A stretch of 64,000 bases of DNA from an uncultured candidate division Zixibacteria bacterium (GTDB taxonomy: Bacteria > Zixibacteria > MSB-5A5 > UBA10806). Below, one piece after another: positions 36,525 to 41,146 of the stretch; the first letter of the stretch is position 1; every line of letters starts with the position of its first letter. A program made the position numbers and the translations under genes. The notes under the pieces are model-generated. The model saw only the letters and a program-made list of their open reading frames with translations. It was not told the DNA's origin and did not search any database. The stretch is from the NCBI GenBank assembly GCA_963817915.1, contig CAWFQL010000017.1:480001-544000 (forward strand), written 5' to 3'.

Positions 36525-36770
36525 ATGAATGAGATGATCCTTCTTTCAATGCCCGGCGGAGGAGAGCTAATTATTATCCTTGTGATAGTTCTGCTTCTCT
36601 TTGGCGCCAACCGTATCCCTGAAGTCGCTAAGGGATTAGGAAAGGGCATTAGAGAATTTAAAAGTGCTATGCGGGATGTCCAATCTGAAATAGATAATTC
36701 CGATAAGCCCAAAGCGCAGATTGACAAACCGAAACAGGACGACTCGACAAAGGCCGAGAAAAAAGAATGA
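36525..36770 (+). CDS. tatA: twin-arginine translocase TatA/E subunit
   Basis: ELIIIL...[23 protein letters not shown]. Confidence 0.96.
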
Positions 36771-37237
36771 CTAAGACGATATTTTCAAGAGAAGATATCA
36801 ATAAAATTGCGTCATGTCTTGGCGTACCCGAGATAAATGATCATAAGGATCATTTCCATCTCAAGCTCGTTAATCATGCTGAGAAACGGCAATTATCATT
36901 GGAAATCTATCCCGAAGTATCACTTGGTGAAAAGGCCAAGGGCGCGATGATAGTTATCTACACTCAGAATTGTCATTTGCAATTGCACGACTGTTCGGGA
37001 TATGTTTTATCGGAAGAGCTTGGCGAGGTCACATTTGTATCGGAGGCGACGGGTAAAATCTCCGGACTTGTTGTTGAACGAGAGGCTGCATGCTCGCTCT
37101 ACTCCAATGCTGAACGAAGTCTTATTTCCGATGATTTTACGGCATTTGGGGTCGAGGTCATGCTATCCGGTGTGGCTTTGTCGCTTGCTGAAGACATTTT
37201 GACTTCTGGCGGCTTAAATCAGAAAAAGGATAAATAA
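36767..37237 (+). CDS. hypothetical protein
   Basis: 156-aa ORF coupled to tatA by an ATGA overlap; no family recognised. Confidence 0.75.
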
Positions 37238-37283: not shown

Positions 37284-37682
37284 ATGCAATTTACGCGAAA
37301 GGGCGATTACGCATTGAGGGCGATGGCCTATCTTGCAAATTCCGAAAGCCAAAATCCTCATACCATAAATGAAATCTCAGAAAAAAGCGGAGTCCCCAGG
37401 CATTTCCTCGCAAAAATTTTAAAGGATTTGACTGAAGCCGGTCTTCTCATAGCTATAAAGGGGGCCAGGGGCGGGTATTCATTGGCCAAAAATCCGGCTG
37501 AAATTAATCTATTGGATATCATGGAAGGTACTCTCGGACCGATGGCGTTAAATATCTGCCTGGAAGGTGAGAATCGATGTCCGGACTTAAAGGGTTGCGG
37601 TTTTTATCCAATTTGGCAAAGGGCTTCTGAAGCCATGCTCAATGTTTTCCGTGAAACAAATCTCCAGTCCCTTCATCATTAA
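37284..37682 (+). CDS. Rrf2-family (IscR-like) regulator
   Basis: DYALRAM, GARGGYSLA, three Cys CLEGENRCPDLKGC. Confidence 0.93.
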   Translation: MQFTRKGDYALRAMAYLANSESQNPHTINEISEKSGVPRHFLAKILKDLTEAGLLIAIKGARGGYSLAKNPAEINLLDIMEGTLGPMALNICLEGENRCPDLKGCGFYPIWQRASEAMLNVFRETNLQSLHH

Positions 37683-37694
37683 TTATTATTTTGT

Positions 37695-38909
37695 ATGGCA
37701 GAAAAAAATATTTATTTCGACAATATCAATACGACATTTCCGGACCCTGAGGCTGTAAAGGCGATGCTTGATGTACTGCAGTCGCATCATGGGAATCCGT
37801 CATCACATATTCATCAGGCAGGGATAAAGGCGGGATTAATTCTCGATGATGCCCGCTTGAAGGTCGCTAATTTTCTACATGCGGCGCCGGAGAATATTGT
37901 TTTTACATCGGGAGCTACTGAATCCAATAATCTGGCCATATCAGGTTTTCTATCTGCTAATCAAGAATATCAACTTGCCGTCTCGGAAATCGAGCATTAC
38001 TCAATAATAAATCAGGCAAGACGATTGAGCCAGAATGGTATCAATGTTGTCTTTTTGGATGTTGAAAAATCCGGCTTGCTCGATCTCGCGAATTTCGAAA
38101 AAGCCATCAAGGCAAGACCGACATTGGTTTCAGTGGGGTTGGCCAATCCTGAGATCGGTACTATCCAAGATTATGATTCGATCTCCGGCATCTGTAAAAA
38201 GCATGGAGCCATATTTCATTGCGATGCCACCAGCGCGGCCTCATCAATCCCAATTGATATTCAAAAATCTGGATTCGATCTCTTGACTCTTTCAGGTCAT
38301 AATTTATACGGCCCAATGGGAGTGGGAGCCTTATACATTGCACCTAAAATCAGAATATCGCCATTATGGGATGGTGGTAATCAAGAATACGGCATCCGTC
38401 CAGGCACCGAAGACCTGCCCGGTATCGCGGCCATGGGCGAGGCCTGCAATCAGCTTCAAGGCAAGATGACTCAAATCAATGAGCATTTAACAAAGCTGGG
38501 AAAGAAATTGTGGAATGGATTAGAGTCCAAAATCCCATTCATTCATTTTACGGGCCATCCCGTTAAACGGCTTCCCGGTCATGTCTCATTCTGGGTTGAA
38601 CATATAGAGGGGGAATCGCTTCTCCTTCTTCTCAATATGAATGGCGTGATGGCGTCATCCGGATCATCATGCAGTTCCAATATCAAAGGGAAAGACGAGA
38701 ATGATTTGGTAGCGTCGCATGTGTTAAGAGCGGTAGGAGTGCCATCGGATATATGCGCTGGATCGATCACATTCTCATTGGGAAAATATAATACTATCGA
38801 TGAAGTTGAATTCGTAATTTCTATCATGCCGGGGATTGTCGAGAAGCTTCTGGCAATGTCTCCAAGCTATGATGATTATTTGAAAAAAAAGGAGCTTTCT
38901 AATGGATAA
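37695..38909 (+). CDS. IscS/NifS-like class V aminotransferase-fold protein lacking the PLP lysine
   Basis: GNPSS, FTSGATESNN, EH, GT, SSGSSC; but SGHNLYGP replaces SGHKxYGP and SITFSLG replaces SLRFSLG. Confidence 0.9.
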   Translation: MAEKNIYFDNINTTFPDPEAVKAMLDVLQSHHGNPSSHIHQAGIKAGLILDDARLKVANFLHAAPENIVFTSGATESNNLAISGFLSANQEYQLAVSEIEHYSIINQARRLSQNGINVVFLDVEKSGLLDLANFEKAIKARPTLVSVGLANPEIGTIQDYDSISGICKKHGAIFHCDATSAASSIPIDIQKSGFDLLTLSGHNLYGPMGVGALYIAPKIRISPLWDGGNQEYGIRPGTEDLPGIAAMGEACNQLQGKMTQINEHLTKLGKKLWNGLESKIPFIHFTGHPVKRLPGHVSFWVEHIEGESLLLLLNMNGVMASSGSSCSSNIKGKDENDLVASHVLRAVGVPSDICAGSITFSLGKYNTIDEVEFVISIMPGIVEKLLAMSPSYDDYLKKKELSNG

Positions 38910-39291
38910 GGCATTTCCCTATTCTGATAAAGTAATGGATCATTTCGCAAATCCCCGCAATATGGGTGAGATCGATAATGCGTCCGGTGTCGGCAATGTT
39001 GGCAATCCCACATGCGGCGATATGATGCGGCTATACCTTAAAATCGAAAATGGGATCATTATAGACGCTAAATTCAAGACCTTTGGATGCGGCGCGGCTA
39101 TAGCGTCGTCATCGATACTTACCGAAATGCTCAAGGGCAAGCCGATAGAAGAGGCATTGAAGATCTCCAATGAAGCGGTTGCGGAAGCTCTTGGCGGGCT
39201 GCCTCCTGTGAAAATCCATTGCTCCGTAATGGCGGAGGAAGCGTTGCGGGCCGCCCTGGATGATTATGAAAAACGTCAAGAATCGAATTAG
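38902..39291 (+). CDS. iscU: Fe-S cluster scaffold IscU/NifU-N
   Basis: YSDKVMDHF, NPTCGD, FGCGAAIAS, LPPVKIHCS. Confidence 0.97.
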   Translation: MDKAFPYSDKVMDHFANPRNMGEIDNASGVGNVGNPTCGDMMRLYLKIENGIIIDAKFKTFGCGAAIASSSILTEMLKGKPIEEALKISNEAVAEALGGLPPVKIHCSVMAEEALRAALDDYEKRQESN

Positions 39292-39888: not shown

Positions 39889-39918
39889 AATGGGCGAGTA
39901 ATATCGCTCATTTTTTTT
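39889..39918 (+). terminator. intrinsic terminator
   Basis: AATGGGCGA-GTAATA-TCGCTCATT followed by a T-run. Confidence 0.6.
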
Positions 39919-40444
39919 ATTCGGTTTGTTCTTTAATGCCGGTTATTGAGAATGTCCACAGCGAAATTGCTATTCCCGCCAAAATTAACAAAAAAAGAGG
40001 GGATGAAATCAGTAGCGTGAAAAGTGATTTTAGTCCGGGGATTAATGACAAGAATGAATTACTGATATTCGATAAATGAGAATATTCATTTTTTGAAATT
40101 AATGTATTCAGCGTAGAGAACAATGATTTGGAGTTGGATAATATAGCCCCGACCAATATGAATATACAGATTGCCGCGGATGCCCAACTGATCATAATAC
40201 CTTTTGCGAGATATTTCTTTTCGGATTCAATCAAAGCGGTTTTCGCCATTACTTGTTCCGAAAATGATATTAGCGCGGTTTCTCTCATTTTCAGGCTCAA
40301 TATATCTTCCAATTGTGAATCAAGCTGAAATCTGGCTCCGCATTGAGGGCATGATTCAATATGACCAATCAGCGATTCCTGGTCGAAATCGTCCCGGAAA
40401 TCGCGCTCGATAATTTTATCGATATCTCGACAGCTATACCGCAT
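39917..40444 (-). CDS. membrane-anchored zinc anti-sigma factor (ZAS)
   Basis: C...HIESCPQC (HxxxCxxC), two TM segments, overlaps the ECF sigma gene. Confidence 0.85.
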   Translation of the reverse strand: MRYSCRDIDKIIERDFRDDFDQESLIGHIESCPQCGARFQLDSQLEDILSLKMRETALISFSEQVMAKTALIESEKKYLAKGIMISWASAAICIFILVGAILSNSKSLFSTLNTLISKNEYSHLSNISNSFLSLIPGLKSLFTLLISSPLFLLILAGIAISLWTFSITGIKEQTE

Positions 40445-41039
40445 ATTTTACCCAGAGCTTTTTCAATTCGAGTTTCGCTCTGAAAAGCCAGATTTTGACA
40501 GTCCCGACCGGACAATTCATAATATCAGCAATCTCCTCATATTTTAGATCATCATAATAATGAAAAATAATGACAGCTTTCAATTCCGGCTTCAGTAATT
40601 TCATCAATTTCTGAACAGTCAATTTCAATGTATGATTATTATTTTCAGCGGCTCTCAATACATAATCTAATTCAATCGGCGCATGTTCCTTTTTTTCTTT
40701 GTTGATATGGCTTAACGCTGTATTATAGGAAATCCTGTAAAGCCAGGTTTTGAAGCTCGAACGTTTCTCGAAACGTCTTATTGAACGATATGCTCTTAAA
40801 AAAACTTCCTGGGCAATATCGGCTGCCTGATCATCAGAATGTACAAGACCATTTATCAACGTAAAGACGAAATCCTCGTATCGCTTGACTAAAACTCTAA
40901 ACGCGTCAGTATCACCGTTTCTGACAAGTTCGATAATCGTGTCATCATCTTGCGCCGCTAAGACAGCCCTAGCCTGTCTTCTGACAAATACTCCGCTTAA
41001 TGATGATACAATGGCCGATTGGTTGATTTTGCCTTCCAT
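40434..41039 (-). CDS. ECF RNA polymerase sigma factor (start uncertain; ORF open to 41087)
   Basis: GDTDAF, DIAQEVF, FKTWLYRI, YEEIADIM...GTVK. Confidence 0.93.
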   Translation of the reverse strand: MEGKINQSAIVSSLSGVFVRRQARAVLAAQDDDTIIELVRNGDTDAFRVLVKRYEDFVFTLINGLVHSDDQAADIAQEVFLRAYRSIRRFEKRSSFKTWLYRISYNTALSHINKEKKEHAPIELDYVLRAAENNNHTLKLTVQKLMKLLKPELKAVIIFHYYDDLKYEEIADIMNCPVGTVKIWLFRAKLELKKLWVKYAV

Positions 41040-41146
41040 AATTTTCGTCTCACATTTGAATACGTAAAATATTGTGTTCAGATTCATTTTTTTGAAACAA
41101 AAGGCTCATCTTCTTAAGTCTAATGGCCAAAACTAAGGAGGCAACA

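Follow-up and report, generated by a model that had tools for sequence, protein, structure and literature searches.

A 64,000-nucleotide stretch of DNA (the window) from an uncultured Zixibacteria bacterium encodes an IscS-like protein, denoted here IscS*, that has lost the lysine forming the Schiff base with pyridoxal 5'-phosphate (PLP) together with three further active-site residues of cysteine desulfurases and has kept the cysteine of the mobile loop. The gene is strongly constrained and under purifying selection, is linked to iscU, and co-occurs with a canonical IscS gene in every genome checked. Judged from sequence, it belongs to a widespread bacterial clade of lysine-less IscS paralogues with derived features of its own. 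Sequence, structural modeling and analogy with IscS of Archaeoglobus fulgidus (AfIscS) make it probable that IscS* is a non-catalytic paralogue that docks IscU and lends it the loop cysteine as AfIscS does, the sulfur being supplied by a true desulfurase or as sulfide. The window comprises positions 480,001-544,000 of the forward strand of contig CAWFQL010000017.1 (assembly GCA_963817915.1), and coordinates given below are positions within it. The source genome (G000) is 3.33 Mb in size and 93.9% complete.

Residues were compared with those of the solved canonical desulfurase 9wew and of 128 lysine-bearing (canonical) homologues, and codons were read directly. The clade was represented by 199 aligned rows, 120 of them database clusters and 79 genome loci, with some overlap between the two. 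The features that carry the finding, all on the plus strand, are the following.

37695-38909: lysine-less IscS/NifS-like protein (IscS*) of 404 amino acids, a member of the insertion-bearing clade; Pfam Aminotran_5, 236.9 bits.
38148-38150: Pro152 in AN-P-EIG, replacing the Asn of the NNE(I/V)G motif (Asn in 123/128 canonical rows).
38232-38234: Ser180 in DAT-S, replacing Gln183 of the E. coli numbering (Gln in 123/128 canonical rows).
38301-38303: Asn203 (AAT) in SGH-N-LYGP, replacing the PLP Schiff-base Lys, E. coli K206 (Lys in 0/199 clade and 128/128 canonical rows).
38580-38594: His296 to Trp300, clade-specific, in the strand preceding the IscU-binding helix (His296 in 197/199 and Trp300 in 199/199 clade rows).
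38670-38672: Cys326, the mobile-loop Cys equivalent to E. coli Cys328 (199/199 clade and 125/128 canonical rows).
38679-38699: seven-residue insertion N329-E335 in the Cys loop, consensus SN-L-K/R-G-x-D-E (filled in 199/199 clade rows).
38754-38756: Cys354 (TGC), a second invariant and clade-specific Cys (199/199 clade rows).
38769-38771: Thr359 (ACA) in SI-T-FSLG, replacing Arg354, which binds the substrate carboxylate (Thr in 184/199 clade rows, Arg in 127/128 canonical rows).
38902-39291: IscU scaffold of 129 amino acids with an LPPVK motif; Pfam NifU_N, 177.6 bits; NCBIfam TIGR03419.

The numbering K206, Q183, R354, H104 and D180 is that of E. coli IscS in passages of PMC9978102, which report that activity was abolished in each of the K206A and Q183E variants and that part of the PLP was still held by K206A. 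An earlier note on this DNA had read the loss of four active-site residues (Lys, Asn, Gln and Arg) and the retention of the loop cysteine from the sequence, and both readings agree with the codons and with the alignments to 9wew and the canonical homologues. The five commonest residues at position 152 among the 199 clade rows are Pro (121), Ser (49), Ala (11), Leu (9) and Thr (3); at position 180 they are Ala (130), Ser (18), Ile (16), Gly (14) and Cys (8), with Gln absent from these five. Relocation of the Schiff-base lysine to another position was considered and ruled out, since Lys does not reach 80% of the clade rows in any column and alignment A1 is without an invariant Lys. The residues in contact with the pyridine ring by stacking or hydrogen bonding and at N1 (T75, H101 and D177) are unchanged in 198-199 of the 199 rows. 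Residues on the phosphate side vary, S200 being replaced by Ala in 21/199 rows and H202 by Gln in 36/199, mostly in Deferribacteres. Retention of a non-covalent cofactor, as in AfIscS, is plausible from these sequences and not assured.

The loop insertion recorded in the earlier note was also found, with a length by alignment of seven residues (approximately N329-E335) in place of the ten quoted (NIKGKDENDL). Of the 128 canonical rows, 123-125 have gaps at the insertion columns 329, 331, 334 and 335; gaps also occupy the insertion columns in 16 other lysine-less rows, save for one residue at position 335. Asn329 is present in all clade rows and Glu335 in 198/199, at positions that are gaps in 123/128 and 124/128 canonical rows, respectively. 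At position 354 the canonical rows contain Ala in 88/128 and Cys at a fraction of 0.02, and none of the 16 other lysine-less rows has Cys there. His296 occurs in 4/128 canonical rows, Trp300 at a fraction of 0.01 and outside the five commonest residues, and Thr286, invariant in the clade (199/199), in 12/128.

The same set of changes recurs throughout the relatives of the gene. None of the 120 best database clusters, which are 50-68% identical to IscS*, has Lys at position 203 (106 have Asn, 10 have Thr and the remaining four each have a different residue); all 120 retain the loop Cys, and 118 have Thr at the position of Arg354. The clade is represented by one full-length sequence and two fragments in a library of 1.84 billion proteins clustered at 50% identity, with the score falling from 523 to 367 bits at the next match. 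When the family alignment was used to scan genomes, one for each species, at least 582 relatives were revealed, of which the best 80 loci were examined; Lys is absent, and the loop Cys and the seven-residue insertion are present, in 80/80. Pairwise ratios of nonsynonymous to synonymous substitution rates (dN/dS, method of Nei and Gojobori, NG86) had a median of 0.126 and a range of 0.03-0.286 for 144 pairs drawn from 92 genes at 80-99.5% amino acid identity. Four coordinated changes and an in-frame insertion common to the relatives exclude sequencing error or chance, and the view that the gene is a conserved pseudo-desulfurase-like paralogue and not one in neutral decay was upheld.

The Pfam match to PF00266 identifies the class-V aminotransferase fold, and IscS* scores under every NCBIfam desulfurase cut-off: 378 bits for NifS (TIGR03402, cut-off 530.75) and, for IscS, 324.7 bits with NF010611 (cut-off 548) and 310.8 bits with TIGR02006 (cut-off 643.2). 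Clade representatives are annotated as "cysteine desulfurase" in public records, a label that is probably wrong.

Of 151 aligned rows from a search for representatives (the query and 150 matches), 17 are without Lys, comprising four of the insertion clade and 13 that have no insertion. A careful tree (IQ-TREE, 91 rows, LG+G4), in which the bootstrap was not fully settled, recovered the insertion clade as monophyletic with an ultrafast bootstrap (UFBoot) of 99 and a Shimodaira-Hasegawa-like approximate likelihood ratio test (SH-aLRT) value of 95. The clade is nested in a 27-row group that contains lysine-less rows only (94/89), its nearest relatives being six insertion-less, lysine-less database representatives (group 94/89). 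The approximately unbiased (AU) test rejected placement of all 37 lysine-less rows in a single clade (p 0.0076). The test did not reject a group uniting the insertion clade and the AfIscS type, chosen once the tree was available (p 0.55). An origin independent of the AfIscS clade is not established, although the quick and careful trees both separate the two. A second lysine-less IscS type, with SSND and no insertion and in this respect like AfIscS, was observed in Zixibacteria (loci L028, L036 and L040; genomes G071, G101 and G078). At these loci the SSND-type gene is followed by a long open reading frame (ORF) of approximately 145-285 codons, stop to stop, with an IscU-like (NifU-like) match.

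The best 80 loci of the species scan are from Zixibacteria, Deferrimicrobiaceae, "Deltaproteobacteria", Myxococcota, Seleniivibrio, Syntrophorhabdales, Syntrophaceae and Schekmanbacteria, from Deferribacter abyssi and D. thermophilus, from Mucispirillum schaedleri and its relatives, and from single metagenome-assembled genomes (MAGs) each of Gemmatimonadota, Actinomycetota and Bacillota. Among 121 genomes sampled evenly from the Zixibacteria phylum, 15 have an orthologue (at least 420 bits), the next-best score being 307 bits. IscU adjoins the lysine-less gene in 12 of these 15 loci and in 72 of the best 80, a result that bears out the expectation that homologues with the same losses would form a clade linked to iscU. 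The sole NifU_N match in the genomes of D. abyssi, D. thermophilus, a Seleniivibrio MAG and a Myxococcota genome (G125) is the IscU encoded beside the lysine-less gene. In M. schaedleri that IscU is the only strong match, with one further NifU_N match of 21.8 bits, and G000 and G085 encode SufU in addition to IscU.

A gene for an Nfu domain comes after those of the lysine-less IscS and IscU in Deferribacteres, which gives a three-gene operon for iron-sulfur (Fe-S) assembly and carriage. The Nfu genes (NifU C-terminal domain, 74-76 amino acids) are at L081 5648-5875 in D. abyssi and L095 5669-5890 in M. schaedleri. Neighbors at other loci are cysS, a ferredoxin-like ORF, rubrerythrin with AhpC, or a gene resembling that for pyruvate:ferredoxin oxidoreductase. 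In one Zixibacteria MAG (L047, 5291-6313) rubrerythrin and AhpC genes follow the lysine-less gene in place of IscU. Neither TusA (PF01206) nor DsrE (PF02635) was found anywhere in the 93.9% complete source genome or among 53 neighboring ORFs scanned from 16 loci.

Within the window, the IscS* and IscU ORFs overlap by 8 nucleotides (38902-38909). The full-length ORF and the intact partner that had been described earlier, with three Cys, an Asp and a His, were both confirmed. The IscU protein scores 206.2 bits with TIGR03419 (cut-off 187.9), and its ligand set of Cys38, Asp40, Cys63, His106 and Cys107 is invariant in an alignment of 25 partner IscUs.

The search for a second desulfurase proposed in the earlier note revealed a Lys-bearing canonical IscS in G000 and in 19/19 other genomes (14 Zixibacteria, four Deferribacteres and one Myxococcota). 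The canonical IscS of G000 has all catalytic residues and is encoded directly upstream of mnmA (G000:C17:~139063-141400, L002). The order canonical IscS then mnmA, the gene for tRNA 2-thiouridine synthase, recurs in 14/14 other Zixibacteria with the lysine-less gene (L151-L164), in six of which an Rrf2 gene lies upstream of the canonical IscS. Rrf2 precedes the canonical IscS in D. abyssi, D. thermophilus, M. schaedleri and Seleniivibrio (all four), and no IscU adjoins the canonical gene in any of the four Deferribacteres genomes or the Myxococcota genome. G000 has in addition a suf operon with SufS and SufU and a further Lys-bearing class-V protein. Because a true desulfurase is present in every genome checked (20/20), assembly that is independent of a desulfurase, as the earlier note had suggested, is not supported; the genomes suggest instead a division of labor between catalytic and non-catalytic IscS. 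The sufS gene of G000 (G000:C9, L001 1456-2700, minus strand), in an operon of the order sufD-Rieske-sufS-sufU-DUF59, is open only from approximately residue 60. The stretch encoding the N-terminus is separated from it by a stop and a change of frame, which reflects a genuine frameshift or a fault of the assembly.

Structure predictions were made of IscS* and of its complex with IscU. The AlphaFold2 (AF2) model of IscS* had a predicted local distance difference test (pLDDT) score of 89.4 and a predicted template-modeling (pTM) score of 0.89, with pLDDT below 50 only in the loop of residues 325-338. The query-normalized template-modeling (TM) score of the model was 0.88-0.92 against NFS1, E. 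coli IscS and AfIscS. The IscS*-IscU complex, predicted with family alignments for both chains, reached an interaction score from aligned errors (ipSAE) of 0.71 (runs 0.71, 0.73 and 0.69), against 0.00 for the best control; of 157 solved complexes 116 reach the mark applied to this score, as do 2 of 215 mismatched pairs. Contacts agreed between runs to at least 89% and the pLDDT of the partner was at least 88. The predicted interface involves residues 303-317, 324-340 (the Cys loop with the insertion), 352 and C-terminal 387-393 of IscS*, and residues 38-43, 59-67 and 101-106 of IscU, the regions that hold the cluster ligands. Cys326 and the insertion (329-335) are predicted to contact IscU, and residue 352, a neighbor of Cys354, is also in the interface.

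The IscS* and IscU genes are preceded on the same strand by an Rrf2 gene. Two further features, both on the plus strand, lie upstream.

36767-37237: conserved hypothetical protein of 156 amino acids, directly upstream of the Rrf2, IscS* and IscU genes.
37284-37682: Rrf2-family regulator with three Cys (C-x6-C-x5-C), 12 nucleotides upstream of the IscS* gene.

The regulator matches Pfam Rrf2 with 118.7 bits and scores under the NCBIfam equivalog cut-offs of IscR, RirA and NsrR (IscR TIGR02010, 71.9 against 207.55), which places it in the Rrf2 superfamily only. The His ligand at +3 typical of IscR was not seen in the window sequence, the three Cys notwithstanding. The three-Cys Rrf2 gene described earlier is indeed upstream, but such a gene does not belong to the conserved core of the module, occurring upstream of the orthologue in 2/15 Zixibacteria loci and, among the best 80 loci, at L043 and L113. 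The 156-residue protein, with no Pfam or NCBIfam match, is encoded upstream of the orthologue in 6/15 Zixibacteria loci. Atlas features lead from it weakly, at 0.90, to clusters resembling YbjN/TY-Chap (chaperone fold), and its membership of the IscS*-IscU module is uncertain. Downstream, the ORF list contains on the minus strand (39917-41087) a 175-residue ORF with Cys-x-x-Cys near the N-terminus and hydrophobic C-terminal stretches, and adjoining it a 217-residue ORF resembling a sigma factor of the extracytoplasmic function type.

The precedent for a role without catalysis is AfIscS, which, according to passages of PMC7585200 and PMC8918507, has Asp in place of the Schiff-base Lys, is inactive, and provides a Cys that ligates a [2Fe-2S] cluster on IscU. 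The precedent invoked in the earlier note thus stands with one nuance, in that AfIscS still holds pyridoxamine 5'-phosphate (PMP) or PLP non-covalently; passages of PMC8918507 also describe both AfIscS and its D199K variant as inactive and leave the sulfur source and the reason for keeping the cofactor as open questions. IscS* keeps the mobile-loop Cys and the fold, with its dimer-type architecture; by analogy, it would have no PLP internal aldimine and no binding of the cysteine substrate. Being unable to form the internal aldimine or to bind cysteine, it would release no sulfur from cysteine. It may bind the probably co-transcribed IscU at the usual IscS-IscU interface, with the elongated Cys loop (Cys326 and the seven-residue insertion) sitting above the cluster ligands of IscU. 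There the loop Cys could serve as a fourth ligand, after AfIscS, or as a persulfide relay in [2Fe-2S] assembly. The sulfur would be supplied either as free sulfide or by a true desulfurase from another locus, which in G000 would be SufS or the canonical IscS beside mnmA.

Several results weigh against this role. The invariance of T75, H101 and D177 together with the new invariant Cys, His and Trp is also compatible with a retained or altered chemistry, and the variation of S200 and H202 implies that retention of the cofactor may not be universal. The phmmer score of IscS* is 271.7 bits with AfIscS and 288.3 bits with the canonical desulfurase 9wew, indicating no special closeness to AfIscS, and the AfIscS-type clade (100/99) is placed apart from the insertion clade in a tree of which the backbone is unresolved. 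IscU is not adjacent in 3/15 Zixibacteria loci and in 8/80 of the best species-genome loci; the three Zixibacteria genomes encode a strong IscU elsewhere. Finally, since IscS-IscU complexes have already been solved, the passing ipSAE may reflect likeness to those pairs, and binding by this copy is a prediction. A more specific version, which we hold only tentatively and regard as somewhat doubtful, is a split ISC machinery in which a catalytic IscS (with mnmA or Rrf2) would make persulfide and IscS* would be the obligatory partner of the only IscU. The dead site would be rebuilt as a two-Cys relay or cluster site, formed by Cys326 and Cys354 with His296, Trp300 and the insertion, and sulfur would arrive in trans or as sulfide. 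If true, such a split-IscS system would be a three-component architecture new relative to ISC, NIF, SUF, MIS and SMS.

Three other explanations were weighed against the scaffold-partner role. IscS* might still be an enzyme, binding PLP or PMP non-covalently and using Cys354, His296 and His38 with the loop Cys for other sulfur chemistry, such as trans-persulfuration with a small-molecule persulfide, polysulfide or thiosulfate as donor, or the conversion of a substrate without an alpha-carboxylate. The conserved ring contacts (198-199/199) would fit this, the invariant C354, W300, T286 and H296 suggest a rebuilt pocket, and retention of cofactor is described for E. coli K206A (some PLP) in passages of PMC9978102 and for AfIscS (PMP or PLP) in passages of PMC8918507. 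However, four contacts to substrate and cofactor are gone together, the phosphate-binding S200 and H202 vary (Ala 21/199 and Gln 36/199), AfIscS and its D199K variant are inactive in the same passages of PMC8918507, and the gene neighborhoods of 16 loci suggest no candidate substrate. An enzymatic role is thus considered unlikely.

A regulator or holdase that ties up IscU, or vies with canonical IscS for it, thereby gating or protecting the assembly of clusters while donating neither ligand nor sulfur, would also account for the predicted IscU-binding surface, for the coexistence of canonical IscS in 20/20 genomes and for the putative single operon with an Rrf2 regulator in the window. Mere sequestration would need neither the invariant loop Cys (199/199) nor the insertion predicted to contact IscU, and in D. 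abyssi, D. thermophilus, Seleniivibrio and Myxococcota G125 the IscU encoded with the lysine-less gene is the only one; we judge this role to be quite improbable. Given an assembly of metagenome type with 22 contigs, in which the sufS gene has a frame break, one might suspect that a normal iscS is decaying into a pseudogene or has been corrupted by sequencing or assembly. Either is ruled out for practical purposes by the full-length ORF, by the substitutions and in-frame insertion common to 199/199 relatives in several phyla, and by dN/dS values of 0.03-0.29.

The results delimit a separate clade of bacterial lysine-less IscS proteins, marked by invariant residues and a loop insertion that are its own. 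Cultured organisms, namely D. abyssi, D. thermophilus and M. schaedleri, are among its carriers, and in both Deferribacter species the lysine-less IscS partners the only IscU of the genome with a normal IscS encoded separately. To our knowledge, the A. fulgidus protein is the only "dead" IscS that has been studied, and no description of a bacterial lysine-less IscS family or of the insertion was found in the literature covered, which excluded Garcia et al. 2022 (MIS/SMS). The bacterial clade allows three questions to be tested: whether sulfur is supplied in trans or as sulfide, the role of the second Cys, and binding of the cofactor. The probable mislabeling of clade genes also affects metabolic reconstructions of Fe-S biogenesis in anaerobes.

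Comparison with AfIscS, for which structures are available (A. fulgidus IscS2, PDB 4eb5, 4eb7 and 4hvk; D199K variant, 4r5f), reveals a common plan with different details. Both are class-I desulfurase folds without the Schiff-base Lys that keep the loop Cys and are encoded with IscU, and the model of IscS* superimposes on AfIscS with TM scores of 0.88-0.89 by query and 0.95-0.96 by target. AfIscS (4eb5) also lacks Gln183 and Arg354, having Ala and Leu where the clade protein has Ser and Thr. It has SSND for S-x-H-K, that is, Asn-Asp for His-Lys, whereas the clade protein has His-Asn, and it keeps the Asn of the NNE motif that is Pro in the clade protein. Neither the loop insertion nor the Cys at 354 is present in AfIscS, both being features of the clade protein, and AfIscS is archaeal whereas the insertion clade is bacterial; the sequence identity is approximately 38%. 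IscS1 of Methanosarcina acetivorans is likewise a lysine-less IscS encoded with IscU, according to passages of PMC7585200. The 16 other lysine-less rows differ from the clade in having neither the loop insertion (one residue at 335 excepted) nor Cys354.

The pairing of canonical IscS with mnmA in Zixibacteria, a feature of the partner gene at its own locus and not of IscS*, resembles the dedicated desulfurase-thiolase pairs of Bacillus, of which we take YrvO-MnmA to be the B. subtilis-type example. Passages of PMC13066941 name SufS-SufU and NifZ-ThiI as dedicated pairs. The same passages describe the MIS system (MisS-MisU, Garcia et al. 2022) as a two-gene S-U pair whose operon is without genes for chaperones, ferredoxin or A-type carrier, and a like two-gene S-U layout is visible in the window. 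With canonical IscS, NifS and NFS1 (1p3w, 3lvl and human NFS1, 5wkp) the clade protein shares the fold (TM approximately 0.9), the mobile Cys loop, the predicted IscU docking surface and the gene order with iscU; it differs from them in the replacement of the Lys, Gln, Arg and motif Asn and in the addition of the insertion and of C354, W300, T286 and H296.

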